A DNA stretch of 64,000 nucleotides from Candidatus Omnitrophota bacterium (GCA_016209275.1 JACQWM010000053.1:11235-75234); one strand, 5' to 3'. Numbered from the stretch's first letter, positions 8,070 to 63,226 are shown. A program made the numbers and translations. The notes: generated by a model not told the origin, from the letters alone.

Positions 8070-9471
8070 TAGACGATTGATATCAGATATCGCGGCTCGA
8101 CCGCGATATCTGGTATCGCTTGTCTTTATCGTCATCCTTCAGGGATGCCGACCGCCTCAAGGTGTTGATGAGCGCCAATGGCCGCAGGTTGTGCTCGAGC
8201 CTACTGATCGGATTCTGATCCTTGCCCCCCACCCCGATGATGAGGTGATTGGTTGCGGCGGCATCATTCAGGAGGCCGTCGCCAAGCACCTGCCGCTGCG
8301 CATCGTGTTTCTGACTTATGGCGATAACAATCAGTGGTCCTTTCTCCTCTATCGATGGCACCCGGTCATCCTGCCCAAGGCGATTCGCAAGATGGGCCTG
8401 GTGCGGTATCACGAAGCGTTGGCAGCGAGCGTTGTGCTCGGAGTGCCCACAGAGCAATTAACCTTTCTCGGGTATCCGGATTTCGGCACGCTGCAGATCT
8501 GGACCTCGCACTGGGGCGACCGGAATCCCTTCCGCAGCTTGCTGACGCGGGTCACGGCGGTTCCCTACGACAACGCCCTGCGGTTCGGAGCGCCCTATAA
8601 AGGCGAAGAGGTCCTGCGGGATCTGACCACGGTCATCCGCGAATTCCGTCCCACGAAAATCTTCGTGTCCCATCCGGCGGACCACATGCCGGATCATCGA
8701 GCGCTCTATCTGTTTACTCGCGTTGCCCTGTGGGATGTGGAGAAGGAGATGCGCCCAACGCTGTATCCGTATCTTGTGCATTTCGTGCGCTGGCCAACGC
8801 CGCGCGGCTATCAACCCGCCGATTGGCTTGTTCCTCCATCGACGTTATTGTCGCAATGGCCATGGATCGTCCATTGGCTGACCCCGTCACAAGTCCAACG
8901 GAACTATCAAGCCATCAAAGCGCATCGGAGCCAATATCGGTATAGCGCGGCGTACCTGCTGTCCTTCATTCGGCCGAACGAGTTATTCGGTGACGCTCCG
9001 CCGATTACGTTTTCGTCAACGGCGTCCACGGCCTTAGAGCGCAAAGGGTTGATCAACCAGGCTCCGGAAGAGCTCACCGAGGAGGAACGAGCCACGTTCA
9101 TTGGCGTTGAAGTTCGCTCGGTGCAATTGGAGGACCGCGAACTCATCTATTCTATTGAGTGTTCCCGGCCGCTTGCCAAAGCCGTCGAGGCCTCGGTCTA
9201 TCTGTTCGGGTATCGCGCCGACCGGCCATTTGCGCAGATGCCGAAGTTGCATGTGAAAATCGGCGCCCTCTCCCACGAGGTGTTTGACCAAGATCGTTTG
9301 TTGCCGAATAAGGCGGTGACGCTGAGCCGCGGCCTGCGCCAGATCACCCTGCGCGTTTCGCTTGAGACTTTGGGCGAACCTCAGCGGATCTTGACCAGCG
9401 CGCGGACGTATCTGGGTGAGCTGCCGCTGGACTGGGTTTCCTGGCGCGTGCTTGAACTTCCTTCGCCGTAA
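8050..9471 (+). CDS. PIG-L/LmbE-family N-acetylglucosaminyl deacetylase lipoprotein with ~250-aa C-terminal extension
   Basis: Lipobox VILQGC; classic LmbE motif ILILAPHPDDEVIGCGG and HPADHMPDH. Start is ambiguous: ATG 8050 overlaps the GNAT gene, or TTG 8077 lies inside a palindromic repeat. Confidence 0.6.
   Translation: MASPSASRRLISDIAARPRYLVSLVFIVILQGCRPPQGVDERQWPQVVLEPTDRILILAPHPDDEVIGCGGIIQEAVAKHLPLRIVFLTYGDNNQWSFLLYRWHPVILPKAIRKMGLVRYHEALAASVVLGVPTEQLTFLGYPDFGTLQIWTSHWGDRNPFRSLLTRVTAVPYDNALRFGAPYKGEEVLRDLTTVIREFRPTKIFVSHPADHMPDHRALYLFTRVALWDVEKEMRPTLYPYLVHFVRWPTPRGYQPADWLVPPSTLLSQWPWIVHWLTPSQVQRNYQAIKAHRSQYRYSAAYLLSFIRPNELFGDAPPITFSSTASTALERKGLINQAPEELTEEERATFIGVEVRSVQLEDRELIYSIECSRPLAKAVEASVYLFGYRADRPFAQMPKLHVKIGALSHEVFDQDRLLPNKAVTLSRGLRQITLRVSLETLGEPQRILTSARTYLGELPLDWVSWRVLELPSP
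8075..8119. repeat. GATATC-unit palindromic element (locus A)
   Basis: GATATCAGATATCGCGG-ctcga-CCGCGATATCTGgTATC: a 17-bp inverted repeat with 5-nt loop and one mismatch. Confidence 0.8.
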
Positions 9472-9556
9472 CTGCGGCTCATGACCCACGACGCATGACA
9501 CAGGACACATGACCACAGCAGGGCCATCGGCTCGAAGCCGTCGTGAGTCATGGGTC

Positions 9557-10747
9557 ATGAGTCATGGGTCGCCCTTTCGTGGAATTACGGGGCCAGTCCT
9601 GACGTTGGGGTTCGTCAGCTTCTTGACGGATGTCTCCAGCGAAATGATCTATCCGTTGCTGCCCATCTTTCTGACGACCGTGCTCGGAGCCGGCCCGGCG
9701 GCGCTCGGGATGATCGAGGGAGCCGCAGAATCCATGGCGGCGATCGTGAAGCTGCTCTCCGGCGTATGGTCGGATCGCGTGCGCAACCGGTCCCGTTTGG
9801 TGTTCTTGGGCTACAGCCTCTCCTCGTGCTCTCGGCCGCTCGTGGCCGCGGCGACCAGCGCCTCCCACATCCTGTGCATCCGCTTGACCGATCGCGCGGG
9901 CAAGGGGGTTCGCACGTCGCCGCGCGATGCGATGATCGCCGACGCTGTCGCACCCTCAGTGCGAGGCAAAGCGTTCGGCTTCCACCGGTCGATGGATCAT
10001 GCCGGCGCGGTCATCGGCCCGCTCCTCGCGACCGCCCTCCTGACGTGGTGGGTTCATGATCTTCGCGTGGTGTTTTGGCTGGCCAGCCTCCCCGGGCTGT
10101 TGGCGGTGGGACTCATTGCCTGGAAGGTGCGCGAGCCTGCTCCCGAGCGCCGCGCGCTAGCGACGCCGCCAGCGCTCTCGTGGGCATGGCCCAGCGGCGC
10201 CTTGCGCCGCTATCTGCTCATCCTCTTCATCTTCACGCTGGGCAACTCCACGGACGCCTTCCTCTTATTGCGCGCCGCCGGGCTCGGCGTGCCGACCGCG
10301 CAGCTGCCGCTGCTCTGGGTCGTCTTCCACATCGTGAAAATGGTATCCTCGATGCCGCTGGGCGCGCAGTCAGACCGTTTTGGCAGGAGACGTGTGATTC
10401 TCGCCGGGTGGGGCGTCTACGCGCTCGTGTATCTCGGGTTTGCCGCGGCCACGCAGCCGTGGCACGTCTGGGCGTTGTTCGCGCTCTACGGCGTGTTTTA
10501 TGGCTGCACCGAAGGCACGGAGCGAGCACTCCTGGCGGATCTTTCAACGCCGTCGATGCGCGGGGCGGCCTTTGGATGGTATCATGGCATCACCGGCATC
10601 GGGCTGCTGCCTGCGAGCCTGCTCTTCGGCGCGCTCTGGCAGCATGCGGGGCCGCAGGCGGCCTTCAGCGTTGGAGCCGTCTTGGCAGCGGTAGCCGCCG
10701 CCGGGCTGATGCTGTGTCTTGATGTTTCGTCGCGCCTTCACTCGTAA
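9557..10747 (+). CDS. MFS transporter
   Basis: 12-TM major facilitator similarity (GWGVYALVYLGFA, DRFGRRRV motif). Alternative start 9509. Confidence 0.65.
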   Translation: MSHGSPFRGITGPVLTLGFVSFLTDVSSEMIYPLLPIFLTTVLGAGPAALGMIEGAAESMAAIVKLLSGVWSDRVRNRSRLVFLGYSLSSCSRPLVAAATSASHILCIRLTDRAGKGVRTSPRDAMIADAVAPSVRGKAFGFHRSMDHAGAVIGPLLATALLTWWVHDLRVVFWLASLPGLLAVGLIAWKVREPAPERRALATPPALSWAWPSGALRRYLLILFIFTLGNSTDAFLLLRAAGLGVPTAQLPLLWVVFHIVKMVSSMPLGAQSDRFGRRRVILAGWGVYALVYLGFAAATQPWHVWALFALYGVFYGCTEGTERALLADLSTPSMRGAAFGWYHGITGIGLLPASLLFGALWQHAGPQAAFSVGAVLAAVAAAGLMLCLDVSSRLHS

Positions 10748-10786: not shown

Positions 10787-12112
10787 TTGGTTCGTGTGCT
10801 TGTGCTCGTGGCTGTGCTGTTGATGCGGCCGTTCGGGCTTGCCGCGGAAGAGCCGGTGACGCCAACCATGCTGACGCTCGCCGATGCCGTCCGGCTCGCG
10901 ACCACACGCTACGCCGAGGTGTTAGCCGCGAATGAGCGAACGCTCCAAGCGCTGGCTCGCCTCGGGCAAGCGCGCGCCACCTTGTGGCCTCACCTCGACG
11001 CCTCGGCGTCGCAATTCCGCCAGACGAGGAACCTTGAAGCCTCGGGCATTCCAATTGCCTTGAGCCATCCGGTCATCGGCCCGTTTAATTCGTTTGATGC
11101 GCGCATTGGGCTGACCCAAACGTTGTTTGATGTCAGCGCCTTCGAACGGTTCCTTACGGCCCGCGCCGGCCGGCAATTGTCCTTAGCGCAGTACGAAAAA
11201 GCCAAGCAAGATGCCATGGCGCTCGTGGCGGCGCTCTTTCTCGAGGCGGTGCGGGCCGCGCAGGCGATTGAGCCGGCGCATGCCCTGTTGACGCGCGATC
11301 AGCGACGGCTCGAGATTGCGTCGACCCAGCACGCCCTCGGCCTTGGATCCGATGTGGACGTGCAGCAGGCCCAGGCCGATGTCGAGGAGAGCCATGCGCG
11401 GTGGCAATCGTCGCTCACGTCCGCGTATGAACGCCAGCTCGATGTGATTGCCGCCTTGCATCTGCCCATGGATCAGCCGCTGATCTTGGTCGATGAGGAA
11501 GATCTCCTCGTGTCCGTACCACGGACCGCTGCCGAAACACAGGCCGCGGCGCAGAGCCATCCGGATGTTGTGGTGGCCCAGCGCGCGCTCACACAGCGCA
11601 CCGCAGAGCAAGCGGCTGAGCGCACCAGCGTCCTTCCCACCATCAAACTCTCCGCGGATTATGGCGCGAGCGGCAAGACCATCAGCGAGAGCGCAGGGAC
11701 CTACACCGTGGGAGCCAGCGTCGCGCTTCCCATCTTCGCCGGTGGCCAGCGCCTCGCGAGAATCCGCGAGGCCGAGAGCCGCGTGCGCGAGGGACACACC
11801 CTATTGGATGACGTTCGTCAGCAGGCAGAGGTGAAGGCGCTGCGCGCCGTCGAAACGCTGCGGCAATCCGCCGTGGTGGTGAAAGCGCAGACGGCCCTGC
11901 TGCAACTGGCCACCACGCACCTCATGGTGGCCCAGCGGCGTCTGCGCAGCGGCCTGGGCAGCGAGCTCGATGTGGTCGATGCGCAGACGAATGCTATGGT
12001 CGCGAAAGACCATCGTGCGGATGCGATAGCGACCTATCGGATGGCGCAAGTGACGCTGGCCCATGCCATGGGCCACGTGGAGTCTTTGGCACGAACACAA
12101 TTCCATGACTAG
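10787..12112 (+). CDS. TolC-family outer membrane efflux protein
   Basis: TTG start; signal peptide; two OEP repeats with coiled-coil/beta pattern; first gene of the efflux operon. Confidence 0.7.
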   Translation: MVRVLVLVAVLLMRPFGLAAEEPVTPTMLTLADAVRLATTRYAEVLAANERTLQALARLGQARATLWPHLDASASQFRQTRNLEASGIPIALSHPVIGPFNSFDARIGLTQTLFDVSAFERFLTARAGRQLSLAQYEKAKQDAMALVAALFLEAVRAAQAIEPAHALLTRDQRRLEIASTQHALGLGSDVDVQQAQADVEESHARWQSSLTSAYERQLDVIAALHLPMDQPLILVDEEDLLVSVPRTAAETQAAAQSHPDVVVAQRALTQRTAEQAAERTSVLPTIKLSADYGASGKTISESAGTYTVGASVALPIFAGGQRLARIREAESRVREGHTLLDDVRQQAEVKALRAVETLRQSAVVVKAQTALLQLATTHLMVAQRRLRSGLGSELDVVDAQTNAMVAKDHRADAIATYRMAQVTLAHAMGHVESLARTQFHD

Positions 12113-12836
12113 CACACAGCAGTTAGCGCACAGCACACAGAGGAACGGTGCTCCCTGTGTGCTGTTTGCTGTGTGCTGTCTGCTCATCTCAGGATGCGAT
12201 CGGTTGATGCGCAACGGGGATTTGCAGTTGACCGGCACGCTGGAGTTGACCGAGCACGCGGTGGGCGCCCGCGTGCCGGGTCGTGTGGCCACGCTGCTGG
12301 TGCAAGACGGTGATGAGGTAAGCGCGGGACAGGTCCTAGCCACCCTGGATCGCTTCGACCAAGCCACGCGGGATGCCGATCGCATCCAGGCGCTCTTCAA
12401 GGCCGGCGGGGCCACGCAACAAGCCGTCGAGCAAGCCGGGTTATCGCTCGAGGACCAACAGGTCGTCTCGCCGGTGACCGGGGTGGTCTTGGTCAAAGTG
12501 CATGAGGCGGGGGAAGTGGTGGGAGCCGGCGCGCCGATTGTCATCATCGGGGACCGATCCTCCCTGTGGGTCCGGGTGTTTGTGCCGGAGGGAAAAGTCA
12601 ATCAGGTGTATTTGCAGCAGCCGGCGACGCTGCGATTTGACGGCCTGGCTCGCACGTACGGCGGCCACATCAGCTTCATCGCGCCGAAGGCGGAGTTTAC
12701 GCCTCGCAATGTGCAAACCGTCGAAGAGCGGATTACGCAAACATTCGCCGTAAAGGTGACCGTGGACCAGCCGGATCCCTCCTTGCGCCCTGGTGTAGCC
12801 GCCGATGTCATCATCCATCTCAAGGGCGACCGATGA
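12105..12836 (+). CDS. HlyD-family periplasmic adaptor (membrane fusion protein) lipoprotein
   Basis: Start overlaps TolC stop; lipobox LLISGC; biotinyl/lipoyl-like and beta-barrel MFP motifs (VLATLD, VSPVTGVV). Confidence 0.65.
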   Translation: MTSTQQLAHSTQRNGAPCVLFAVCCLLISGCDRLMRNGDLQLTGTLELTEHAVGARVPGRVATLLVQDGDEVSAGQVLATLDRFDQATRDADRIQALFKAGGATQQAVEQAGLSLEDQQVVSPVTGVVLVKVHEAGEVVGAGAPIVIIGDRSSLWVRVFVPEGKVNQVYLQQPATLRFDGLARTYGGHISFIAPKAEFTPRNVQTVEERITQTFAVKVTVDQPDPSLRPGVAADVIIHLKGDR

Positions 12837-16692: not shown

Positions 16693-17292
16693 ATGGGGAA
16701 ATCGCTCTGGGTCTTGGCCAGCCTGCTGGTTGTCGCACCGACGACGGCTGTGGCTTCCGCCGAGGCGGGAACGCCGGCACCCGATGTTCGCCTGATGGAT
16801 TCGCGCGGCACCGCCCGAAGCCTCTCGGAGTTCCACGGCAAGATCGTGGTGCTCGAATGGTGGAATCCGGACTGCCCCTTTGTCAAACGGCATTACGGTG
16901 GGGCGATGCAGCGACTGCAGGACACCTACACCGCGCGGGGCGTCATCTGGCTGATGATCAATTCCTCGGCTCCAGGCAAACAAGGCCGCCTCGCGCCGGA
17001 GGCGGCCAACACCTATGCGGCGACCCATGGGGTGAAGGCGACGGCCATGCTCTTGGACCCTGACGGCGCGGCCGGCCGGTTGTACGGCGCAAAGACGACC
17101 CCGCACATGTTCATCATCGATCCTCAAGGGACGCTCGCCTATGCCGGCGCCATCGACGATCATCCGGCCGTCGATCCGTCGGATCCTCCGCCGGCGTCCA
17201 ATTATGTGACGCAATCCCTTGAGGCGCTGCTTGCTGGCCGGCCGATTCCAGTGAGGACGACCACCTCGTATGGCTGTTCGGTCAAATACTAA
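16693..17292 (+). CDS. thioredoxin-fold redoxin family protein, secreted
   Basis: Signal peptide MGKSLWVLASLLVVAPTTAVASA; redoxin-like core LEWWNPDCPFV. Confidence 0.55.
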   Translation: MGKSLWVLASLLVVAPTTAVASAEAGTPAPDVRLMDSRGTARSLSEFHGKIVVLEWWNPDCPFVKRHYGGAMQRLQDTYTARGVIWLMINSSAPGKQGRLAPEAANTYAATHGVKATAMLLDPDGAAGRLYGAKTTPHMFIIDPQGTLAYAGAIDDHPAVDPSDPPPASNYVTQSLEALLAGRPIPVRTTTSYGCSVKY

Positions 17293-17308
17293 CGACTCGG
17301 AGGTCACG

Positions 17309-18142
17309 ATGCTCGACACGACGCTGGCATTATCAGGGCAGCTGAAGGAAACACTGGAAGCCATCGCGCGGAAGACGGCGTTCCGTCCGCAGATTGGGCT
17401 CGTGCTAGGATCCGGCCTCGGCGGACTGACGAAGTCGGTTCGCGTCGAGACGGAGATCCCGTACGAAGACCTGCCGCACATGCCCAAGGCGACCGCGCCC
17501 GGCCATGAGGGCAAACTCGTGCTGGGCACGATCAGCCAGCAGCGCGTGGCCGTGCTCGCCGGACGGTTTCATCATTATGAAGGCTATCCCATGTCCCAGG
17601 TCGTGTATCCGGTGCAGCTCGTGCGCGCGCTGGGAGCTGAGACGCTAATGCTGACGAGCATCGTCGGCGGCATGAATCCCGCCATGCTGCCCGGCTCGCT
17701 CGTGATGCTTGATGATCACATCAATTTCATGGGGGCGAATCCGCTCTTAGGGCCGAATGATGAGACGATCGGCCCGCGGTTTCCCGATATGTCGCAGCCG
17801 TATGATCCGGCCCTCCAGCAGTTGGCCCGCCAGGTGGCGGCCGAGCAGAAGATTCCGCTGACAGACGGCGTGTATGCGGCGGTGGCCGGGCCGAATCTTG
17901 AGACGCGCGCTGAATACCGCATGCTGCGCGGGATGGGGGCGGATGTGGTGGGGATGTCGATGGTGCCCGAAGTGCTGGCCGCCCGGCATGGCGGCTTGCG
18001 TGTGCTGGCTGTGGTGGTCGTTTCCGACGCGTGCGATCCGGATCACCTGAAGCCCGCCAACATCGAGGAGCTGCTTCGCATCGCTGCGGCCACCGAACCC
18101 AAGCTCACCAAGCTCTTGCAGGGCGTCATCTCCCGACTTTAA
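17309..18142 (+). CDS. mtnP: purine nucleoside phosphorylase family; S-methyl-5'-thioadenosine phosphorylase by context
   Basis: PNP/MTAP family motifs (GSGLGGL, VGMSMVPEV); immediately upstream of mtnA. Confidence 0.65.
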   Translation: MLDTTLALSGQLKETLEAIARKTAFRPQIGLVLGSGLGGLTKSVRVETEIPYEDLPHMPKATAPGHEGKLVLGTISQQRVAVLAGRFHHYEGYPMSQVVYPVQLVRALGAETLMLTSIVGGMNPAMLPGSLVMLDDHINFMGANPLLGPNDETIGPRFPDMSQPYDPALQQLARQVAAEQKIPLTDGVYAAVAGPNLETRAEYRMLRGMGADVVGMSMVPEVLAARHGGLRVLAVVVVSDACDPDHLKPANIEELLRIAAATEPKLTKLLQGVISRL

Positions 18143-18197
18143 CTGCACAGGCGATATCAGATATCGATTTCGATATCTGATATCGCTCTTGCAGTTG
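18141..18197. repeat. GATATC-unit palindromic element (locus B)
   Basis: aaCTGCAcagGCGATATCAGATATCG-attt-CGATATCTGATATCGCtctTGCAGtt: perfect 16-bp arms with an extended outer stem. Confidence 0.85.
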
Positions 18198-18203
18198 ACC
18201 TGA

Positions 18204-19280
18204 ATGCGAGTCAACGGTATCCCTTATCGCACTGTTTGGCTGGAAGGCTCGACGGTGCATCTGATCGATCAGCGCCGTCTGCCGGCGCGGTTTGAGATTC
18301 TTGAGCTGCCCACAGTCCAGCAGACGGCGGAGGCGATTCGCACTATGACCGTGCGAGGCGCTGGGGCCATTGGCGTCGCGGCCGGTTTTGCGATGGCGCA
18401 GGCGGCACTCCTGGCTCCGGCATCCGGCGTGCGCGAAGCGCTCGAGCAGGCGGCGGCGATCATCCGCGCCACGCGGCCCACCGCGCAGAACCTGTTTTAT
18501 GCGGTGCAGCGTATCGTCGACGGCACGCGGTCGGCCCATTCCGTCGACGAGATTCGACGGCGAGCCGTGGTGATAGCTCAACGCATGGCCGATGAAGACG
18601 CCGCCTCCGGCGAGCGCATTGGAATCGTGGGGGCTTCGCTCATCCGCGATGGGGCGTCCGTGATGACGCACTGCAACGCCGGGTGGCTGGCGTTTGCCGA
18701 TTGGGGCACGGCCTTGGCACCCATCTATGTCGCCCATCGAGCCGGCAAACGCGTGTCGGTGATCGTGAATGAGACGCGGCCGCGCGGGCAGGGGGCGAAG
18801 CTCACCGCCTGGGAACTCGGGCAAGAAGGTGTTTCGCATACGCTGATTCCCGATACCGCTGCTGGCTACGCGATGGCGCAAAAACTTGTGGATCTCATCA
18901 TCGTGGGCGCGGATCGCATCGCGGCCAACGGCGATGTGGCGAATAAAATTGGGACGTATGCGTTGGCCGTGTTAGCGCAGGCCCATCAGATTCCGTTCTA
19001 CGTTGCGGCTCCGACCACCACGATCGATGCCGCATGTCCTGAAGGCTCGAAGATTCCTATTGAAGAACGATCCGCTGATGAGGTCGTCTGGACATCAGGT
19101 GTGACCGATGATGGCGCAGAAACCCGCGTGCGCACCGCCCCGGAGCACACCCCAGCGCGCAACTGGGCGTTCGACGTGACACCGGCAGCGCTGATTCGCG
19201 GCCTGATCACCGATCGGGGGATGATTCGCCCTGAGCCTCAGGCGATCGCTGAGGTGATGACCGCGGCGGCGACTCGATGA
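18204..19280 (+). CDS. mtnA: S-methyl-5-thioribose-1-phosphate isomerase
   Basis: eIF-2B alpha/beta/delta-like MtnA family similarity across the full length. Confidence 0.8.
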   Translation: MRVNGIPYRTVWLEGSTVHLIDQRRLPARFEILELPTVQQTAEAIRTMTVRGAGAIGVAAGFAMAQAALLAPASGVREALEQAAAIIRATRPTAQNLFYAVQRIVDGTRSAHSVDEIRRRAVVIAQRMADEDAASGERIGIVGASLIRDGASVMTHCNAGWLAFADWGTALAPIYVAHRAGKRVSVIVNETRPRGQGAKLTAWELGQEGVSHTLIPDTAAGYAMAQKLVDLIIVGADRIAANGDVANKIGTYALAVLAQAHQIPFYVAAPTTTIDAACPEGSKIPIEERSADEVVWTSGVTDDGAETRVRTAPEHTPARNWAFDVTPAALIRGLITDRGMIRPEPQAIAEVMTAAATR

Positions 19281-22093: not shown

Positions 22094-22654
22094 ATGAAAA
22101 CATCAACCCCTCGGCAACGCGCGATCTCTGCGAGGGATCCTTTGGGCTTCAAACGATACATCCGGAACATTCCGGATTTTCCAAAACCCGGCATCTTATT
22201 TCGCGATATCACGACGCTGCTCCGCAACGGGCCGGCGTTCCACAAGGCGATTCATGCGCTGGCTCAGCGCCATCACGGAACCAAGCCGGATGCGGTGGTG
22301 GCGATTGAGTCGCGCGGCTTGATCGTAGGCTCGGCCCTCGCCTATGAGCTTGGAGTCGGCGTCATCCCCGTCAGAAAGAAGGGCAAGCTGCCCCATAAGA
22401 CATTTCGCGCCAGCTACGAGCTGGAATACGGCACCGACACGCTGGAGATTCACCAGGATGGATTTTCGAGGGGCTCGCGCGTCCTCTTAGTGGATGACCT
22501 GCTGGCCACCGGCGGCACCATGGGGGCGACCATCGACCTCATTGAGCAATGCGGCGGAAACATTATCGAGCTCGCGTTCTTGATCGAGCTGACCGCGCTG
22601 GGCGGGCGCGAGCGCTTAGCACCCTATCCGGTGATTTCCTTGGTGCGGTATTAA
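22094..22654 (+). CDS. apt: adenine phosphoribosyltransferase
   Basis: PRTase motif VLLVDDLLATGGT; full-length APRT similarity; RBS AGGAG upstream. Confidence 0.85.
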   Translation: MKTSTPRQRAISARDPLGFKRYIRNIPDFPKPGILFRDITTLLRNGPAFHKAIHALAQRHHGTKPDAVVAIESRGLIVGSALAYELGVGVIPVRKKGKLPHKTFRASYELEYGTDTLEIHQDGFSRGSRVLLVDDLLATGGTMGATIDLIEQCGGNIIELAFLIELTALGGRERLAPYPVISLVRY

Positions 22655-22671
22655 CACAGGAGGGACGCGCG

Positions 22672-22782
22672 ATGGCGACACGACGGAAAACCGCAAAGCG
22701 GCCAGCCGCCCGGCGCAGCACGGCGCGCAAGCCGGCCGCGAAGCGCAAGTCGATGGGCAGCTGTTCCTGCTGCACGTGTTAA
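22672..22782 (+). CDS. 36-aa highly basic peptide with C-terminal CxCC motif
   Basis: Perfect SD AGGAGGGA 8 nt upstream of ATG; MATRRKTAKRPAARRSTARKPAAKRKSMGSCSCCTC. Confidence 0.35.
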   Translation: MATRRKTAKRPAARRSTARKPAAKRKSMGSCSCCTC

Positions 22783-22788
22783 CCAAAA

Positions 22789-22831
22789 GGCGATATCAGA
22801 TATCGAGCATTCGCTCGATATCTGATATCGC
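22789..22831. repeat. GATATC-unit palindromic element (locus C)
   Basis: GCGATATCAGATATCGAGC-attc-GCTCGATATCTGATATCGC: perfect 19-bp arms. Confidence 0.85.
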
Positions 22832-22837
22832 TCTTGC

Positions 22838-25509: not shown

Positions 25510-25511
25510 CG

Positions 25512-25547
25512 ACGATATCAGATATCGAATTCGATATCTGATATCGC
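25512..25547. repeat. GATATC-unit palindromic element (locus D)
   Basis: CGATATCAGATATCGAATTCGATATCTGATATCG: a perfect 34-bp palindrome. Confidence 0.85.
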
Positions 25548-25554
25548 TCTGCGC

Positions 25555-26154: not shown

Positions 26155-26157
26155 GCG

Positions 26158-26442: not shown

Positions 26443-26451
26443 GAACGCAGA

Positions 26452-44990: not shown

Positions 44991-45010
44991 CCGGTCCTCA
45001 ACTCGATGTC

Positions 45011-45047
45011 TGTCCCCGGCGGTGACTGTCACCAGTGGGGACGGCCG
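45011..45047. repeat. REP-like palindrome GTCCCCggcGGTGACTGTCACCagtGGGGAC flanking the RAYT 5' end
   Basis: GGTGAC-T-GTCACC core with CCCC/GGGG outer arms. Confidence 0.6.
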
Positions 45048-50171: not shown

Positions 50172-50192
50172 CTGTTCCAGGCGATATCAGAG

Positions 50193-50276
50193 TGCCGGAG
50201 GAGGGAGTCGAACCCTCATGGCCTTGCGACCACGGGTTTTTGAGACCCGCGTGTATACCAGTTCCACCACCCCGGC
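50193..50276 (-). tRNA. tRNA-Leu (anticodon CAA)
   Basis: Minus-strand sequence GCCGGGGTGGTGGAACTGGTATACACGCGGGTCTCAAAAACCCGTGGTCGCAAGGCCATGAGGGTTCGACTCCCTCCTCCGGCA: 7-bp acceptor stem, anticodon loop CUCAAAA, long variable arm, GGTTCGA T-loop; CCA not encoded. Confidence 0.8.
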
Positions 50277-50280
50277 CTGA

Positions 50281-50376
50281 AGTTCGATATCAGATATGAA
50301 ATAGCCATTTCATATCTGATATGAAACAGGCAATCCATATCAGATATCAAAACGCCATTTCATATCTGATATCGCC
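50281..50376. repeat. cluster of GATATC-unit palindromic elements (locus F) adjacent to the tRNA-Leu 5' end; an additional half-site at 50181-50191 abuts the tRNA 3' end
   Basis: TTCGATATCAGATATGAAAT-agcc-ATTTCATATCTGATATG ... CATATCAGATATCAAAAcgccATTTCATATCTGATATCGCC: two tandem degenerate hairpins. Confidence 0.8.
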
Positions 50377-50384: not shown

Positions 50385-51137
50385 TCACTTCTTTTCGAGG
50401 AAGGGCTTGATCAGATCAATCGGAATCGGAAAGATCGTCGTGGAGTTTTTGTCCGACGTGGCGATTTCGGCCAGTGTTTGCAGGTAGCGCATCTGCAGCG
50501 ACATGGGCTGCTCGCTCATTAAGGCCGCGGCATCCACCAGCTTCTGGGCCGCCTGAAATTCCGCGTCCGCCCCGATGATCTTCGCCCGCCGCACCCGCTC
50601 GGCCTCGGCCTGCCTGGCCATCGCGCGCCGGATCTCTTCCGGCAGGTCGACCTGTTTGGTTTCGACGGCTGACACTTTAACCCCCCACGGGTCGGTGTGC
50701 CGATCGATGAGCGCTTGGAGCTGCTGGTTGAGTTTGTCGCGCTGGGCGAGCAGTTCATCCAATTCAACTTGTCCCAGCACGCTGCGCAGGGTGGTCTGGG
50801 CCATCTGGGAGGTGGCGAAGAGGTAGTCTTCCACTTCCACAATGGCCTTGTTCGGATCGATCACGCGGAAGTAGATCACCGCGTTGACCTTAATCGACAC
50901 GTTATCTTTCGTGATCACATCTTGCGGCGGCACATCCAGGGTGACCGTGCGCAAGCTGATGCGCACCATCCGGTCGATCGGAAACAGAATGAAAATCAGC
51001 CCCGGTCCGAGCGGTTGCGAGAGCATGCGTCCCAAGCGAAACACGACGCCGCGCTCGTATTCATTCAAGATTTTGATGCAGTTCATCACCCAGAAGACCA
51101 GTAAGATGACGACTGGAAACAGCCCATAGCCCACCAT
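50385..51137 (-). CDS. SPFH/band-7 (stomatin/prohibitin-like) protein
   Basis: N-terminal TM then SPFH domain ([10 protein letters not shown]...); classic NfeD partner. Confidence 0.8.
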
Positions 51138-56359: not shown

Positions 56360-56722
56360 ATGGCGATTGATCCGCGCGCGTTTGCCCGAACGCTGGTGCG
56401 ATTGAACGTCGTCTATACGGCGATCAAGGCCAAAACCACATCGCGCGCGCTCACCCGCGATGTCGGAGGCGAAGGTTTAAGCTTCTTGGCCGATGCGCCC
56501 CTTGAGTTGGGAGAGCAGGTGAAGGCCGAACTCTCCTTGCCGGATCGCGCCGAAGCGATTTCCTTTACCGGGGAAGTCACGCGGTGCACGGCGGCCCCCG
56601 AAACGACTGGAAGCGAAACCGCTGCGCATCTGATTGTGGTGAAATTCGTCATGATCGATCCCAAGCAGTTGTCCATGATTCAGCAATACGTCCGGCTCAA
56701 CGCGCTGCCGCTTGAAGGGTGA
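56360..56722 (+). CDS. PilZ-like domain protein
   Basis: RxxxR-like N-terminus (RAFARTLVR) and RDVGGEGLSF block; the paralog downstream has the same layout. Confidence 0.45.
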   Translation: MAIDPRAFARTLVRLNVVYTAIKAKTTSRALTRDVGGEGLSFLADAPLELGEQVKAELSLPDRAEAISFTGEVTRCTAAPETTGSETAAHLIVVKFVMIDPKQLSMIQQYVRLNALPLEG

Positions 56723-57096
56723 TGACGACCGAGCGCTGGCAATTGGTGCGGATCCGATCGCGGCTGAATGCGATCGTGCGGTTTTCGAGCCGCGAAGAGA
56801 TCATCCGAGCGCTCACCCGTGATATCGGCGTCTCAGGCATCCGGCTCCTGACGGAAGGGCCGCTGGCCAGCGGAGAGCTCATCGGGGTGGAGCTCGCCTT
56901 GCCGGATCGCGCGCAGCCCATCGTCTTTACCGGCGAAGTCGTCTGGAGCAAGTCCATCGATGGCGCGGTGGTGGGCGAAGATGAATCCGCGATTGAAAAC
57001 GGCATTAAATTCGTGACGATCGATCCGAAGGACCGCGAAGCCCTCATGCAGTGGGTCGCCCTCAACGCGCTGCATCCTAACCTTGGCGACCGCTAA
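56719..57096 (+). CDS. PilZ-like domain protein (tandem paralog)
   Basis: RIRSRLNAIVR...RDIGVSGIRLL; ATGA-type overlap with the previous gene. Confidence 0.45.
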   Translation: MMTTERWQLVRIRSRLNAIVRFSSREEIIRALTRDIGVSGIRLLTEGPLASGELIGVELALPDRAQPIVFTGEVVWSKSIDGAVVGEDESAIENGIKFVTIDPKDREALMQWVALNALHPNLGDR

Positions 57097-57145
57097 AAGG
57101 GGTCAGACCCCATTTCAAAAAGGGGTCTGACCTCTTTTCACAGAC

Positions 57146-59722
57146 ATGGCTGAGAAATATCCGTTCCACGAGATTGAGCCAAAATGGCAGCGCGTCTGGG
57201 AAGACCAGAAGACCTTCCGCGTGACCGAGGGAGGCACCAAGCCGAAATACTACGTGCTCGATATGTTTCCCTATCCCTCAGGGGCCGGCTTGCACGTGGG
57301 GCACCCCGAAGGCTACACGGCGACGGATATCGTCGCTCGCTACAAACGGATGCGCGGCTTCAACGTGCTGCACCCGATGGGCTGGGATGCGTTCGGCCTG
57401 CCTGCCGAGCAATACGCGATCGAAACCGGGACCCATCCGGCGGAGACCACTCGCAAGAACATCGCGACCTTCAAAGCGCAAATCACGCGGCTGGGATTTT
57501 CCTACGATTGGGATCGCGAGATCAATACCACCGATCCTGGCTATGTGAGATGGACCCAGTGGATCTTTCTGAAATTGTACGAGCGCGGCTTGGCCTACAT
57601 GGCGGAGGCTCCGGTGTGGTGGTGTCCATCCTGCGGCACGGTGCTCGCCAATGAAGAAGTCGTCGACGGCACGTGCGAGCGCAAGGGCCACCCCGTCGAG
57701 CGCAAGCCGATGCGCCAGTGGATGCTCAAAATCACCGCGTATGCCGAGCGGCTGCTCGCCGACTTAGACGCGTTGGATTGGCCGGAGCATATCAAAGATC
57801 AGCAGCGCTATTGGATCGGCAAGAGTATCGGCGCTGAGGTCTGGTTTGCGTTAGACACCAAGGGGCCACCCATTCCAGACGCGTTGATGGATGGAACGCG
57901 GCTGCGGCGGCGCCACGGCGCCGTCGAGTGCAAGATTTACACGACGCGTCCAGATACGCTCTTTGGCGCCACCTACCTCGTGCTCTCACCGGAGCACCCT
58001 GCGGTCTTGGCCATCACGGCGGAGAACCGTCGTGTCACGGTTGAGCAATATCGACTGGAAGCGTCGCGCAAAAGCGAACTGGAACGCTCCGAACTGGCCA
58101 AAGAGAAAACCGGGGTGTTCACCGGCGCGTATGCCGTTAATCCGGTCAATCAAGAACACATTCCCATCTGGATCGCGGATTACGTGCTGGCCAGCTACGG
58201 CACCGGAGCCATCATGGCCGTGCCGGCCCATGATCAGCGCGATTTGGAGTTTGCGCTCACACACGGCTTGGATGTCCGCATCGTGATCATGCCGGAGGAT
58301 CATGCGCTTGAGCTTGTCGGCTTGACCCAGGCGTACACCGAGCCGGGCCGCATGCATGACTCCGGGCCATTTACCGGATTGCCGAGCGAAGACGCCAAGG
58401 GAAAAATTACTGACTGGCTCAAGGCTCAAGGCTCGGGGCTGAAGGCGACAAACTACAAACTGCGCGACTGGCTGTTTTCTCGACAGCGGTACTGGGGTGA
58501 GCCGATCCCGATCGTGCACTGCCCGAAGGATGGCACGGTGGCTCTGCCGGAGTCGGCGCTGCCGCTGACGTTGCCCCCGATCGATGATTTCAAACCGACG
58601 GGGACTGGGGAACCGCCGCTGGCGAAAACCAAGGCGTGGGTGACCACCACGTGCCCTACCTGTCGCGGCCCGGCTCAGCGCGAAACCAACACGATGCCGC
58701 AGTGGGCCGGCTCATGCTGGTACTACCTGCGTTACCTGGATCCGCGCAACGCTCAACGCGCGTGGGATCCATCGAAGGAGCAGTCTTGGATGCCGGTGGA
58801 TCTCTACATCGGGGGGGCCGAGCATGCGGTGCTGCATTTGCTCTACGCGCGGTTTTGGCACAAGGCGCTGTACGATCTCGCACTCGTTTCCACGTCGGAG
58901 CCGTTTCAGCGGTTGGTGAATCAGGGATTGATCCTCGGCGAGGACAACGAGAAAATGTCCAAATCGCGCGGCAATGTCGTCAACCCCGATGAGGTCATTG
59001 CCGCCCACGGGGCGGATGCGTTTCGGCTCTACGAGATGTTCCTGGGGCCGCTGGAAGCGGTCAAGCCCTGGAGCACGCGCAGCATCGAGGGCATTGACCG
59101 GTTCCTGAATCGTGTGTGGCGCCTCGGCGACATGATTGCTCAGGGCTCAGGGCTCAGGGCTCAGGGTGAACGCCCATCCACGCAGGATAAAGAATTTGAG
59201 CGAAAACGCCACGAGACGATCAAACACGTCACAGAGGATATCGAGCAGTTGCGGTTCAATACCGCGATTTCGTCCATGATGGTTTTTTCAAACCTCATTG
59301 CTGACGCGCTCGAGCGGCCCCGAGCCCCGAGCCCCGAACCCCGAGCCATCCGTCAGGCATTTGAGACGCTGGTCTTGTTGCTCTCACCCTTTGCCCCGCA
59401 TCTATGCGAGGAGCTCTGGCAGCGACTCGGCGAAAGCCGAGGAGTCCCGAGCGCAGTCGAGGGACGGCTGGGCCATGCGAAGAGCCTGGCGTATGAACCG
59501 TGGCCATCGTTTAATGCGGCCGCCCTGCAGACGGCCGAAGTCACGCTGGTCGTGCAGGTCAACGGCAAGGTGCGCGGGCGCATCACGGTCGCCTCCGATG
59601 CCAGCGAGGAGGCCGTGAAGGCCGCGGCCCTGGCCAATGACCAGGTCAAAAAATTCGTCGACGGCCAACCCGTGAAGCAATTCATCATCATCCCGAAACG
59701 CTTGGTGAATATTGTCCTCTGA
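57146..59722 (+). CDS. leuS: leucine--tRNA ligase
   Basis: HMGH-type (HVGHPEGY) and KMSKS motifs; full-length class I LeuS similarity including the editing domain. Confidence 0.9.
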
Positions 59723-60071
59723 ACGGGTCTCCTTCACGCTGGGTGTGGTCGGTCTTGCGGCCACCGCATGGCTGAGCCTGGTCGCGTGGCTGAGGATAGC
59801 GCCTCCCGCGCGGCCGGGCGCTGCGATGGCGCCTGTGCCGGCGGCGTCATGGGACCTTGCGCTTTCGCGCGCACGGCGGATTGACATCAATGCGGCGAGT
59901 GGTGCAGAATTAGAGCGGTTGCCTGGTGTCGGGCCTGCGCTGGCCTCGCGCATCATCGCGTACCGCCAATCGGCCGGGCCGTTTGCAACGGCGGAGGGGT
60001 TGCGCGAGGTGCCAGGGATCGGCCCGAAAACGTTTGAGGCGCTTCGCGACTACGTGAGCGTTGATGGGTAA
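59712..60071 (+). CDS. comEA: ComEA-family helix-hairpin-helix DNA-binding protein
   Basis: N-terminal TM then [29 protein letters not shown]...GIGPKTFE (tandem HhH). TTG start is uncertain. Confidence 0.65.
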
Positions 60072-60631: not shown

Positions 60632-60910
60632 ATGGCGCGGGCGATTGTGAAGGTCCAGAAGAATAAGAATATTACACTGCCGATGTGGCTGATCAGCCGG
60701 TTTCACGTCCAGATCGGCGATTTTGTTCGCTTGGAAGAGACGAAGGACGGCGTGCTCATGAAACCGGCCAAATTGATCGATCCCTCCCAAGCGTACTTTT
60801 GGTCGAAGGAGTGGCAGGCGGGCGAGCGAGAAGCCGAGGAGGACGTCCGCAAAGGCCGCGTGAAAGGTTTTAAGAGCGTCAAGGACCTCATGACTGATCT
60901 GCATCGGTGA
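60632..60910 (+). CDS. AbrB/MazE/SpoVT-type antitoxin
   Basis: Swapped-hairpin antitoxin pattern (KNKNITLPMWLISRFHVQIGDFVRLEE); overlaps the downstream toxin gene by 4 nt; lower-GC islet. Confidence 0.55.
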   Translation: MARAIVKVQKNKNITLPMWLISRFHVQIGDFVRLEETKDGVLMKPAKLIDPSQAYFWSKEWQAGEREAEEDVRKGRVKGFKSVKDLMTDLHR

Positions 60911-61167
60911 TGCAGGTCTTTCGCACGGAACGCTTCAAGAAAGATTTCAAACGCCTTCCACGCGAGATTCAAGCACGACTCCCCGATGTCCTCGAACGCT
61001 TCGTCGACAATCCGCGTCATCCATCGCTCCAGACGAAGAAAATGGAAGGGGTTCGTGATATCTGGGAACTCCGTGTGACACAAAGCTATCGCATCACGTT
61101 TCAATTCGTTCTCGAGGGCGTCCTTTTGCGTCGCGTGGGCACACACGATGTGCTACGTCAGCCATGA
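60907..61167 (+). CDS. RelE/ParE-family type II toxin
   Basis: ~86 aa; FKKDFKRL...IWELRVTQSYRITFQ pattern typical of RelE/ParE mRNA interferases. Confidence 0.55.
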   Translation: MMQVFRTERFKKDFKRLPREIQARLPDVLERFVDNPRHPSLQTKKMEGVRDIWELRVTQSYRITFQFVLEGVLLRRVGTHDVLRQP

Positions 61168-61186: not shown

Positions 61187-63217
61187 ATGACGCGGACCTT
61201 CACGATTTCTTCTTCAGCGAGCCTCAAGTTTCACCTCGACTTGGAGCAGGATCTCAACAACGCCCAGCGCGCCGCGGTGACCTGCGGCGAGGGGCCGAAG
61301 CTCGTCATCGCGGGCGCCGGCTCGGGCAAGACCCGCACGATCACCTATCGGGTGGCCTTCCTCATCGCCAAGGGAATCCACCCCAGCCAGATCCTCTTGG
61401 CCACCTTTACCAATAAGGCCGCGCGGGAAATGCTCAGCCGCGTCGAACAATTGACCGGCGGCGACGCCAGCGGCCTGTGGGGTGGGACATTCCACGCCAT
61501 CGGCAATCGGCTGCTGCGCCAGCACGGGACGCTGGTGGGGCTGCAGCCGAACTATTCCATTCTGGATGAGGAAGATCAGCGGGACTTGATCAAAGTCTGC
61601 ATCACCGAGGCCAAGGTGAAGGTTGAAGAGAAACGGTTTCCAGCGCCGTCGCTCATCGGGGATCTGATCAGCATGGCGTTCAACCTGCAGAAACCTCTGG
61701 CGGCTGTCATCGAGGCCCGCGCGCCGCATTTTGGCCTGTGGGCGCCGGAGCTTGAGCAGGTGGCCGCGCGCTATGAGGCGAAGAAGCGGTCGACGAATGC
61801 GCTGGATTACGACGATCTGCTAAAGTTTTGGCTGAAGCTGCTGGAGACCAAGCCTGAGATGGCGGAGCGGCTGAGTCGGCAGTTTCGCCACATCCTCGTC
61901 GATGAGTATCAAGATACGAATGTGGTCCAAGCGCAGATCGTCGAACGTCTGGCCCAGCGCAATGGCCGCAATCTCATGGTCGTCGGAGACGATGCGCAGA
62001 GTATTTACCAGTTCCGCGGGGCCAACTATGACAACATCCTCAAGTTTCCCGAACGCAACCCCGGCACGGAGATCTTCAAGCTGGAAACCAACTACCGCTC
62101 CACCCCGGAAATCCTCGAGTTCACCAACGCGAGCATCCTGCATAACCAGCACCAGCACCGCAAGACCTTGGTCGCGCAGCGCGACCGGGGCCGCCTGCCG
62201 GTCGTGGTCCCCGCGAACGACATGTATCAGGAAGCGGCGTTTGTCGCCGAGCGGATTTTACAATTGCGCGACGACGGCATTCCCTTGGAGGAGATGGCCG
62301 TGCTCTACCGGGCGCACGCGCACTCCTCGATGCTGCAGGCCGAGCTGATCAAGCGCAACATCCCCTACGACGTGCGCTCCGGGGTGCGGTTTTTCGAGCA
62401 AGCGCACATTAAAGATGTGGTGGCGTATCTGAAGGTGCTCGACAATCCGCATGATGAGATCGCCTGGCGGCGGCTGTGGCTCATGCTGCCGAGAGTCGGC
62501 CATGTGACGGCCGCACGGCTCTGGGAGGCGATTGCCAGCGCCGTGAATCCATTCGATGCCGCGCTGACCGAGGCGGTGGCTCGCACGCTGCCGCCGGCCG
62601 CCCAGGCCTACTACAAACGATTTCAGCACGACCTGCGACGGCTCTCGGCGTCCCGCGAGGATGTCTCGCCGCAGGAGCTGATCCGGGCGGTCATGGAGAG
62701 CGGCTATGCGGATTATCTGCGCGCGAAGTACGACGCGTTTCAATCAAGGCTGGAAGATCTGCAGCAGCTTGCGGTCTTTGCGCGGCCGTATCGCAGCCTG
62801 CGCAGCCTGCTCTCGGAGCTGGTGTTGCTCGGCGAGCTGTACGGCCAAGAGGTTGGTCCGGGTTCGGCCGAGACCGAACGGCTCATCCTCAGCTCGGTGC
62901 ATCAAGCCAAAGGATTGGAGTGGCGCGTGGTCTTCGTCATCCGGATGTGCGAGGGCAGCTTTCCGTCGGAGATGGCGTTGCGCGAAGAGCGCGGGGAAGA
63001 GGAAGAGCGGCGGATTTTTTACGTGGCCACGACCCGTGCCAAAGATGAGCTGTACATCACGCATCCGCTCATCGATCTCTCCCCGCGCGGCAACAGCCAG
63101 CTCCTGCTGCAACCCTCGCGCTTCCTGCGCGAGATCCGCTTTACCCTCTATGAGCAAGGCCAGATTGATCAGACGGTTGATATCAGATATCATCAGTCTG
63201 ACGCCGATGATATCTGA
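61187..63217 (+). CDS. UvrD/PcrA/Rep-family ATP-dependent DNA helicase
   Basis: Walker A GAGSGKT, motif II VDEYQDTN, later helicase motifs; the 3' end reads into a palindromic repeat (locus G). Confidence 0.85.
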   Translation: MTRTFTISSSASLKFHLDLEQDLNNAQRAAVTCGEGPKLVIAGAGSGKTRTITYRVAFLIAKGIHPSQILLATFTNKAAREMLSRVEQLTGGDASGLWGGTFHAIGNRLLRQHGTLVGLQPNYSILDEEDQRDLIKVCITEAKVKVEEKRFPAPSLIGDLISMAFNLQKPLAAVIEARAPHFGLWAPELEQVAARYEAKKRSTNALDYDDLLKFWLKLLETKPEMAERLSRQFRHILVDEYQDTNVVQAQIVERLAQRNGRNLMVVGDDAQSIYQFRGANYDNILKFPERNPGTEIFKLETNYRSTPEILEFTNASILHNQHQHRKTLVAQRDRGRLPVVVPANDMYQEAAFVAERILQLRDDGIPLEEMAVLYRAHAHSSMLQAELIKRNIPYDVRSGVRFFEQAHIKDVVAYLKVLDNPHDEIAWRRLWLMLPRVGHVTAARLWEAIASAVNPFDAALTEAVARTLPPAAQAYYKRFQHDLRRLSASREDVSPQELIRAVMESGYADYLRAKYDAFQSRLEDLQQLAVFARPYRSLRSLLSELVLLGELYGQEVGPGSAETERLILSSVHQAKGLEWRVVFVIRMCEGSFPSEMALREERGEEEERRIFYVATTRAKDELYITHPLIDLSPRGNSQLLLQPSRFLREIRFTLYEQGQIDQTVDIRYHQSDADDI

Positions 63218-63226
63218 TATCGCCTT
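63178..63226. repeat. GATATC-unit palindromic element (locus G)
   Basis: GATATCAGATATCATC-agtctgacgcc-GATGATATCTGATATC: perfect 16-bp arms; overlaps the uvrD-like stop codon. Confidence 0.8.

Follow-up and report, generated by a model that had tools for sequence, protein, structure and literature searches.

The stretch analyzed here, 64,000 nucleotides from a Candidatus Omnitrophota bacterium (GCA_016209275.1 JACQWM010000053.1:11235-75234; hereafter the window), is gene-dense, has a GC content of 62% with genes mostly on the plus strand, and carries at seven loci a dispersed family of short palindromic elements built from the hexamer GATATC. These elements occur as inverted doublets that fold into single hairpins, sit tightly behind stop codons, and occupy junctions at which relatives have either almost no spacer or a different hairpin. 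We consider it somewhat probable that they constitute a lineage-specific repeat, made of heptanucleotide units and comparable to the repetitive extragenic palindromes (REPs) and their inverted doublets (REPINs), which has been copied into the spacers at gene 3' ends and acts as a transcribed stem-loop.

In such a scenario the doublets would be added to very short spacers by a copy-and-insert or conversion process and be co-transcribed with the flanking genes. The resulting RNA stem-loops at gene 3' ends or between cistrons might act as a terminator-like barrier, a block to 3'-exonucleases or an RNase III site; the barrier function would apply at convergent junctions, and a role as stabilizer or processing site within operons. 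The doublets may be tolerated because the hairpin keeps the upstream stop and the downstream start close together, and they would take the position that other hairpins, often also heptanucleotide-built, hold in sister genomes.

Copy number, architecture and pairing of the GATATC elements

An earlier note on this DNA had listed seven loci and held their number to be far above chance; motif searches, the raw sequence and an inverted-repeat scan recover all seven, and the counts bear out the second point. With up to two mismatches, CGATATCAGATATCG yields 26 strand-hits in the window versus 0.08 expected and GATATCWGATATC 16 hits versus 0.55 expected, while CGATATCWGATATCG with up to three mismatches yields 15 versus 0.93 expected, every one of them within the seven loci. 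At this last threshold neither a solitary nor a degenerate copy of the 15-mer was found outside them, including in the approximately 58 kb of coding sequence. The bare GATATC hexamer is present 49 times versus 11 expected, with 27 of the 49 lying within elements. A literature search returned no mention of the GATATCAGATATC motif, nor of REP sequences together with Omnitrophica.

The repeating unit is a 15-bp odd-centered palindrome, CGATATC-W-GATATCG, that is, two GATATC hexamers at a spacing of 7 nt. The arms accordingly consist of two GATATC units, as had been claimed, reading GATATCA-GATATCG, and TRF calls arrays of period 6-7. There are 15-16 units in the 64 kb against about one expected, and they occur as inverted doublets only, with A at the center of the 5' (left) unit and T at that of the 3' (right) unit in all eight hairpins. 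The doublets are 34-56 nt long, with 0-17 nt between the units, the ends of this intervening stretch being mutually complementary; centers of paired units lie 19, 25, 26 or 30 bp apart, and the spacers between the 13-mers measure 6 to 17 nt. The number of units per arm is constant at 2+2 in the window (arrays of other phyla have 4 to 8). The elements and the features directly attached to them are as follows:

8071-8125, unstranded: element 1, with units at 8078-8092 (TGATATCAGATATCG) and 8104-8118 (CGATATCTGGTATCG), inner stem CGG/CCG and loop ctcga
18141-18196, unstranded: element 2, with core 18152-18185 (15-mer, ATTT, 15-mer) and outer arms AACTGCACAGG and CTCTTGCAGTT, an extended palindrome of 56 nt
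22787-22834, unstranded: element 3, with 19-nt perfect arms GCGATATCAGATATCGAGC and GCTCGATATCTGATATCGC and loop attc; -35.9 kcal/mol
25507-25553, plus strand: element 4, a 34-nt perfect loop-less palindrome (25513-25546) in a 47-nt unit that runs from TAACGA to GCTCTGCG
26446-26492, minus strand: element 5, a 47-nt unit identical to that of element 4 and inverted, with the 34-nt perfect loop-less palindrome
50181-50192, unstranded: half-site GCGATATCAGAG, 12 nt, touching the 3' end of tRNA-Leu(caa)
50192-50276, minus strand: tRNA-Leu(caa) gene, within the locus 50181-50376
50285-50374, unstranded: element 6, tandem hairpins at 50285-50323 and 50336-50374 that are mutually inverted copies, with 39-nt arms of 90% complementarity
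63178-63222, unstranded: element 7, reading TGATATCAGATATCATC, an 11-nt loop and GATGATATCTGATATCG, with 16-nt perfect arms; -27.6 kcal/mol

The perfect arms of 16-19 bp previously ascribed to the family are found only in elements 2, 3, 4, 5 and 7 and not, for instance, in element 1, whose 25-nt arms are 84% complementary, both non-Watson-Crick positions being T.G on the sense strand (fold of -36 kcal/mol, z -7.8). Element 2 has a 16-nt perfect core within 27-nt arms of 89% complementarity (-39.7 kcal/mol, z -10.5). In element 6 a change in the core is compensated (GATATG...CATATC), the fold reaches -44.6 kcal/mol and TRF reports a period of 25 with 3.4 copies; in element 7 a G-to-A change at the inner end of the core is compensated by a C-to-T change, and an outer T.G lies on the sense strand. 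The locus 50181-50376 had been taken for one element; its hairpins are indeed present, but it is composite, comprising a half-site, an overlooked tRNA-Leu(caa) and two tandem hairpins. A 10-nt direct repeat, CGATATCAGA, at 50183-50192 and 50285-50294 encloses the tRNA gene plus 8 nt, and looks as though an element was split or partly duplicated around it.

Folded as single strands, the doublets form stems of 16-39 bp with energies of -23.7 to -44.6 kcal/mol and z scores of -4.6 to -10.5. Their inner stems vary among copies and nonetheless remain complementary (CGG/CCG, AGC/GCT, ATC/GAT, AAAT/ATTT). We quantified this in 34 unique elements from the window and the fetched loci of other genomes: at the three positions immediately inward of the 13-mer core, 59-76% of the base combinations are Watson-Crick pairs (GC, CG, AT and TA), and partner shuffles pair at only 28-35%, with none of 2000 shuffles reaching the observed value at positions 2-3. 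Outside the core, pairing drops to background beyond two bases. Since the bases beside the conserved core covary through different base pairs, the covariation indicates that hairpin symmetry is the maintained feature, rather than merely the presence of two protein-sized sites. Among 36 orientable elements the non-Watson-Crick stem positions comprise 22 of G.U type versus 10 of A.C type on the sense strand, and the three mismatches found in cores of the window are each T.G on that strand, a modest bias that could reflect selection acting on the transcript or on a single DNA strand.

A conserved core with variable loops, occurring in pairs behind genes, would also be expected of DNA uptake sequences that have accumulated as inverted pairs in terminator positions, comparable to the DNA uptake sequences of Neisseria and the uptake signal sequences of Haemophilus. 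The window does code for competence-type proteins, namely YifB/ComM (45053-46576) and a ComEA-like HHH_3 protein (59712-60071), and a relative has dprA. Yet no single copy was found in the approximately 58 kb of coding sequence, even at three mismatches; moreover, we know of no uptake sequence with a palindromic core such as this one. We hence regard this origin as very improbable. A membrane open reading frame (ORF) at the end of the window (63640-64000), unscanned, might be ComEC.

Genomic positions and orthologous junctions

The element cores start 2-15 nt past a stop codon, and the elements essentially fill their spacers; spacing behind stops is similarly tight at the loci of relatives. 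Of some 25 gaps in the window that measure 25 nt or more, five, all co-directional or convergent, hold an element, two further elements overlap ORF ends, and none of the three divergent (promoter) gaps is occupied. The neighboring genes, as annotated with Pfam and NCBIfam, have no functional theme. Rfam at gathering thresholds reports two tRNAs and a c-di-GMP-I riboswitch in the window and nothing on the elements; the riboswitch (RF01051, 53.9 bits; 38147-38234, minus strand) lies upstream of a PAS/HisKA sensor kinase ORF (35780-38113, minus strand). The earlier description of the copies as intergenic or at gene ends thus stands in general, and the peptides ISDIA/RYQIS do recur in the ORF translations as it had stated, with element 1 departing from the pattern. 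It begins 9 nt past the TAG stop of a GNAT acetyltransferase gene (7257-8069), and the PIG-L-like lipoprotein ORF that follows (8077-9471) has its start at TTG 8077 or ATG 8050, then MISDIAARPRYLVSLVFIVILQGC with a lipobox; because no in-frame start codon separates the element from the lipobox, element 1 is probably translated as the N-terminus of this protein (the n-region of the lipoprotein signal peptide).

The remaining elements lie between or at the very ends of genes. Element 2 occupies the 61-nt spacer from an MTA-phosphorylase-like gene (mtnP; 17270-18142) to mtnA (18204-19280), and element 3 lies between a small Cys-rich ORF (22549-22782) and trxB (22841-23788). The TAA of the element 4 unit is the stop codon of a DUF3332 gene (24958-25509), with the start of a cox3-like gene 8-17 nt after the element, and the TAA of element 5 (26490-26492, minus strand) is the stop codon of a fatty-acid desaturase gene (26490-27359); element 5 takes up the whole 47-nt gap between the caa3 subunit IV gene (26158-26442) and this convergent desaturase gene. 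The two 47-nt units are identical with their flanks included, and the shared TAA terminates two different genes on opposite strands; at the nucleotide level this pair shows recent copying that took in the flanks. Being inverted, elements 4 and 5 (25507-26492) enclose the cox3-like and caa3 subunit IV genes (0.9 kb) and are a possible substrate for inversion by homologous recombination. Element 6 is situated between the stop of a Band_7/HflK-like gene (50385-51137, minus strand) and the 5' end of tRNA-Leu, and the right arm of element 7 contains the TGA stop (63215-63217) of a UvrD-like ORF (61187-63217), a PilZ gene starting at 63237. The window also holds a ParE-type toxin ORF (60907-61167) with a small upstream partner.

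These positions bear on whether the elements are sites in duplex DNA for a dimeric or heptad-reading protein, be it a global regulator, a nucleoid-associated protein or a ribbon-helix-helix protein of the omega/ParG type. A perfect 15-bp palindrome has the size bound by dimeric helix-turn-helix or ribbon-helix-helix proteins, the 7-bp half-site spacing is reminiscent of heptad operators, relatives have A..A and T..A doublets in addition (L029, L066 and L004; L-numbers denote loci fetched from other genomes or metagenome contigs and compared with the window), and in Pseudoclavibacter two GATATC[A/T]GATATC 13-mers flank a TTGACA-containing promoter stretch next to a MerR-type gene. In the window, by contrast, the divergent gaps are empty, most elements leave no room for a promoter and one fills a convergent gap; the unit spacing of 19-30 bp shows no helical phasing, there are no single sites, the neighboring genes are functionally unrelated, and complementarity extends to variable inner bases for which a duplex-binding protein would have no use. 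Given the empty divergent gaps, the convergent copy, the variable spacing and the unrelated neighbors, the earlier suggestion of operator sites of one regulator finds no support, and we consider a duplex-binding role in general improbable. The Pseudoclavibacter pair, with its 13-mers 29 nt apart at one syntenic locus (L020, L033, L034, L044, L046, L047, L065), is probably a genuine pair of operators that has no relation to the dispersed family; it was also all that emerged when ORFs within 2.5 kb of the motif were clustered over 88 loci in search of a shared neighboring gene.

We compared five of the junctions with their orthologs. At two of them a relative has a spacer of 5 nt, and at three the relatives have different hairpins, mostly composed of 7-nt units. 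The mtnP-mtnA spacer, 61 nt in the window, measures 5 nt in L070, while in L071-73 it has 41 nt and no palindrome; subtracting the 56-nt extended palindrome of element 2 from the 61 nt leaves 5 nt, precisely the L070 spacer. The DUF3332-cox3 spacer is 45 nt in the window versus 5 nt in L099. At the junction of subunit IV with the convergent desaturase gene, L098 and L100 have ordinary GC-rich terminator hairpins followed by T-runs where the window has element 5. Between the Cys-rich ORF and trxB, the counterpart of element 3 has arms of AGTCCNT units in L072 and of CAGTGGC/CACTCGA units in L098 (TRF period 7, 4.9 copies), the palindrome starting 4-8 nt past the stop codon in each genome. Between the Band_7 gene and tRNA-Leu, where the window has element 6, L090 has an inverted (GGCTNNA)n heptad array. 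In this comparison of orthologous loci, from which mobility was to be read, the spacer differences at two of the five junctions look like insertions, and at three other hairpins are in place. In the aligned junctions the GATATC elements are shown to sit where relatives have a near-zero spacer or another hairpin, often of 7-nt units. Because these relatives have only 0-3 GATATC hexamers in 7-21 kb, the family is specific to this lineage.

Further afield, a scan of one genome per species recovered the A..T doublet at 69 loci. Hairpins of the type seen in the window occur in metagenome-assembled genomes (MAGs) of 'Planctomycetales' and Omnitrophota with 61-68% GC. Tandem (GATATCN)4-8 arrays with a variable seventh base occur in Bacteroidota, Bdellovibrionota/Oligoflexia, Ignavibacteriota and some Planctomycetia, where they are mostly intergenic and 5-15 nt from gene 3' ends. 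The full 15-mer doublet was found in 15 metagenome contigs of 51-69% GC (most 58-69%), which have the element alone in common with the window. Control scans of viral contigs for nested doublets yielded none for GATATC, five for GTATAC and one for GAATTC; palindromes of nested hexamers thus exist for motifs other than GATATC, and, such palindromes being possible in general, the GATATC hits in several phyla need not share ancestry. An artefact of assembly, a vector or a chimera, which the restriction-site look of the motif and nothing else brings to mind, is of negligible probability and was rejected, since the element type is carried by independent MAGs and metagenome contigs (JGI, ENA and NCBI assemblies); the copies in the window, furthermore, lie in intact, syntenic gene contexts at seven loci.

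Comparison with REPs, terminators and the Y1 transposase locus

REPs are dispersed extragenic palindromes found downstream of ORFs at unidirectional or convergent junctions, and can supply stop codons (PMC3733652); a REPIN is a replicative inverted doublet of REPs that folds into one larger hairpin (PMC3116915). The characterization of the GATATC elements as a dispersed REP-like palindromic family agrees well with these descriptions (PMC3733652, PMC3116915): they form a repeated stem-loop at seven loci with 15-16 units outside ORFs or at their ends; they lie 3' of ORFs between unidirectional or convergent genes (five gaps and two overlaps with ORF ends); some are in ORFs and some supply stops; they are short and lineage-specific; and all eight hairpins are inverted doublets with covarying inner stems. 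They differ from REPs and REPINs in their size, with a unit of 15 bp and a doublet of 34-56 nt versus about 100 nt for a REPIN, and in composition, the unit being a perfect 6-1-6 palindrome of restriction-site-like hexamers with AT-rich stems in a genome of 62% GC. They also differ in that we found no REP-associated tyrosine transposase (RAYT) flanked by GATATC elements, the sole RAYT-like gene seen having other repeats. The latter gene, which had been proposed as the partner of the elements from its coordinates 44373-44990, is the following:

44363-45042, minus strand (ATG 44990 to TGA 44373): Y1/RAYT-like gene (PF01797, E = 1.8e-12), directly downstream of yifB/comM

The proposal is right about the gene, which codes for a genuine Y1/RAYT-like protein matching the NCBIfam model REP_Tyr_transpos (NF047646) over its full length, with 70.7 bits, below the cutoff of 80. 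It does not hold for the flanks, which are GGTGAC[A/T]GTCACC and not GATATC. The gene is bracketed by GTCCCCA-N3-GTGAC[A/T]GTCACC at 45021-45042 and 44365-44386, with GGGGACAG upstream in addition (45010-45017). The yifB/comM-Y1 pair recurs in the Omnitrophota contigs L089, L090 and L091 at 58-66% identity, in essentially single-copy clusters. GGTGAC[A/T]GTCACC brackets the Y1 gene in all four genomes, is present in 2-3 tandem copies in L090 and L091, and has the TGA stop of Y1 within its downstream copy. It is confined to the Y1 loci and not dispersed in the window. GGGGACAG fits the GGGGWSAS motif of 'TIRYT' loci, in which RAYT-like genes have their own inverted repeats (PMC3733652), and the Y1 locus is an arrangement of TIRYT type. 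The single-copy gene with self-complementary flanking repeats and a GGGGWSAS-type motif resembles TIRYTs/TIRtrons (PMC3733652); this likeness concerns the neighboring Y1 gene and not the GATATC family, and its flanking repeat is undispersed in the window.

Mobilization of the elements as REPs by this Y1 transposase would be in keeping with the protein family and with the conservation of the gene, which across Omnitrophota is kept as a single copy in synteny with yifB, as would be expected of a domesticated RAYT (PMC5581495). It might also explain why GGTGA-CWG-TCACC and GATAT-CWG-ATATC have the same 6-1-6 layout with a CWG center, but such a center occurs in nine of 38 non-family 6-1-6 palindromes versus about 12% expected, too weak as a clue to Y1 recognition. 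REPINs almost always flank their RAYT (PMC5581495). Here the expected flanks are absent: the GATATC element closest to the Y1 gene of the window lies 5 kb away, and in their place stand TIRYT-type GGTGAC-W-GTCACC repeats and GGGGACAG (PMC5581495, PMC3733652). Moreover, the contigs L089, L090 and L091, which carry Y1, have 0-9 GATATC hexamers and no GATATC elements, and tblastn with the Y1 protein over approximately 750 kb of fetched loci found no Y1 homolog near any GATATC element. We judge this route quite improbable; the Y1 transposase is not the obvious spreading agent.

The alternative designation of the elements as miniature inverted-repeat transposable elements (MITEs) was rejected. A MITE measures 70-300 bp, with terminal inverted repeats of 15-30 bp that enclose a non-coding core, a target-site duplication and a cognate insertion sequence; the elements, at 34-56 nt, have nothing between the arms except a loop of 0-17 nt, and no direct repeats were seen at their borders that could represent a target-site duplication. 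No insertion sequence with GATATC ends was found in the window or the fetched loci. Among other candidates, integron attC sites were rejected as the flanking genes are syntenic housekeeping genes and not cassettes, tyrosine-recombinase cores (13-6-13) as the spacers of the 13-mers vary from 6 to 17 nt, and parS/matS-like sites on spacing variability, gene context and the absence of singles. No integrase was found among the ORFs scanned with Pfam or NCBIfam, about half of the window ORFs being unscanned. The relatives themselves have another dispersed, MITE-like family of 90-165 nt (L098 1145-1310, 3000-3165 and 3745-3870; L100 10592-10680; L072 2417-2487) with ends ATGATCCCCACACCTGC...GCAGGTGTGGGGATGA, which contributes the stop (TGA) to the gene upstream and the start (ATG) to the gene downstream and fills the cox3-cox4 spacer, a spacer of just 3 nt in the window.

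The elements share with Rho-independent terminators and intercistronic stabilizers their location directly 3' of stop codons, and element 5 replaces the canonical bidirectional terminator of the relatives. They differ from such terminators in that one sequence is reused at many loci and in having perfect, AT-rich stems and no U-tract, which is why they are not canonical intrinsic terminators. Inspection found no U-tract or terminator signature at the elements, a terminator scan flagged element 3 alone, on the antisense strand, and the sense-side flanks are not T-richer. Elsewhere in the window, at 57095-57138, between an ORF (56719-57096) and leuS, there is a nested palindrome, AAAAGGGGTC-A-GACCCC...GGGGTC-T-GACCTCTTTT, with A- and T-tracts, which looks like a canonical bidirectional terminator; it has the 6-1-6 layout and the CAG/CTG center of the GATATC unit.

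Several observations weigh against the interpretation of the GATATC elements as REP/REPIN-like stem-loops that act in the transcript. Tagged REPs have an unpaired GTAG or CGTC (TGTC/CCTC) at one end of the stem (PMC3733652). None of the seven loci has GTAG at any copy, and just four of seven (elements 1, 4, 5 and 7) have a tag resembling CGTC, namely GACG at 0-2 nt to the left of the stem; elements 2, 3 and 6 lack GACG, and the right flank of the elements reads CTCT(T)G or CCTTG. On the tag, the family thus falls outside the GTAG/CGTC-tagged REP superfamilies. Neither in the window nor in the approximately 750 kb of fetched loci did we detect a transposase or RAYT with GATATC units on its flanks, and in the 64 kb of the window the Y1 gene has GGTGAC-W-GTCACC instead. 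The evidence for mobility consists of the spacer differences, for which the nearest relative compared at the DNA level (L070) is about 75% identical at the protein level, as measured on MtnA, and loops and inner stems diverge among copies beyond what simple recent copying would produce. Regarding function, the G.U bias is at p~0.03-0.05 and equally fits folding of one DNA strand, the AT-rich stems without a clear U-tract are not those of classical intrinsic terminators, and element 2 is situated within a likely operon, in which strong termination would do harm.

Heptanucleotide repeats and a possible rewriting of hairpins

The main rival to a copied REP/REPIN-like repeat is an origin as heptanucleotide simple sequence repeats (SSRs) of the short tandemly repeated repetitive (STRR) type. 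Polymerase slippage would generate and turn over the arrays, template switching (quasi-palindrome correction) would render them symmetrical and gene conversion would homogenize them among loci, with no dedicated enzyme; we regard this origin as possible though rather unlikely. Heptameric SSRs are over-represented in bacteria and are found at the same intergenic sites in related species, in variable form and sometimes as inverted pairs (PMC4692102). The GATATC elements resemble the STRRs of cyanobacteria and the GGGAATC and GGGGAYT repeats of Xanthomonas and Nostoc, respectively, in their 7-nt unit, in the tandem arrangement of these units at many intergenic loci, in forming inverted pairs capable of stem-loops and in occupying orthologous sites with changed sequence or length (PMC4692102). 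Each arm amounts to two 7-nt units and, the hexamer being self-complementary, any (GATATCN)n array folds back on itself; the arrays of 4-8 units with a variable seventh base, 5-15 nt behind genes in MAGs of Bacteroidota, Bdellovibrionota, Ignavibacteriota and Planctomycetia, also have the expected form. In line with a heptad theme throughout the clade, other period-7 arrays, several of them inverted pairs, occur both in the window (9480-9570, 12111-12184) and in relatives (L072 16820-16898, L098 123-201, L090 4103-4172, L099 7056-7085).

The elements are nevertheless unlike published heptameric SSRs in having an invariable two units per arm, a defined loop and a self-complementary unit, in being neither G-rich nor quadruplex-forming, and in lying tightly behind stop codons. 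Slippage cannot put the same 13-15-mer at seven unrelated loci, and the 2+2 units show no variation in length across the window. Furthermore, the 47-nt identity of elements 4 and 5 takes in non-repeat flanks, the A..T arrangement of all eight hairpins implies copying of the doublet or selection on it, and the strict period-7 excess is modest, with two arrays versus 0.1 expected in the window.

At 9480-9570 in the window, inverted arrays of (CATGACN)x5 and (NGTCATG)x4-5 lie in and around the gap before an MFS-like ORF (9509-10747), and GGTCATG x3 recurs within an ORF at 63762-63783. The palindrome at 12111-12184, whose arms consist of four AGCACAC/CTGTGTG heptads around a loop of 14 nt (-45 kcal/mol), begins at the stop codon (12110-12112) of the ORF 10787-12112. 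Heptad arrays are also present within leuS (57146-59722): GGCTCAA with 4.4 copies at 58416-58446, GCTCAGG with 4.1 copies at 59138-59166 (100% matches) and GCCCCGA with 4.4 copies at 59317-59347. The first two, which are members of a single family (GGCTCAN), each encode AQGSGL(K/R)A; relative to the LeuRS of T. thermophilus they entail a length change of 0 or 1 amino acid, and the third coincides with a 4-amino-acid insertion. The same GGCTCAN family makes up intergenic hairpins in L090 (4103-4132) and L099 (7056-7085).

A more speculative possibility, to which we assign a low probability, is that hairpins behind genes in this clade of Omnitrophota are written and rewritten from heptanucleotide units by an unrecognized templated process. 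It would account for unrelated heptad palindromes at one orthologous junction in three genomes, namely (GATATCN)2, (AGTCCNT)3-4 and (CAGTGGC)5, and for the presence of GGCTCAN both in intergenic hairpins of relatives and twice within the leuS coding sequence of the window; the heptad theme is based mainly on TRF rows and inverted arrays, and not on a large genome-wide excess. If true, GATATC would be the variant that recently swept this genome, the position of the hairpin being conserved and functional and its sequence replaceable, and the process would offer a way to approach the old puzzle of why heptameric repeats are in excess in bacteria.

In practical terms the elements matter for the annotation of these MAGs, as they create spurious ORFs and alter the starts and stops of genes. 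With no paper found on the motif, the GATATC family would extend the REP/REPIN-like elements to a miniature, heptad-built and untagged form with no visible cognate RAYT, and would bear on how REP-like repeats arise and spread. A specialist would expect the existence of such a family somewhere; less expected is the swapping of heptad-built hairpins at conserved junctions, which joins two usually separate literatures, those on REPs and on heptameric SSR/STRR repeats. That a hairpin is kept at orthologous junctions while the sequence family that forms it is exchanged suggests that the cell makes use of these structures, probably at the level of RNA.

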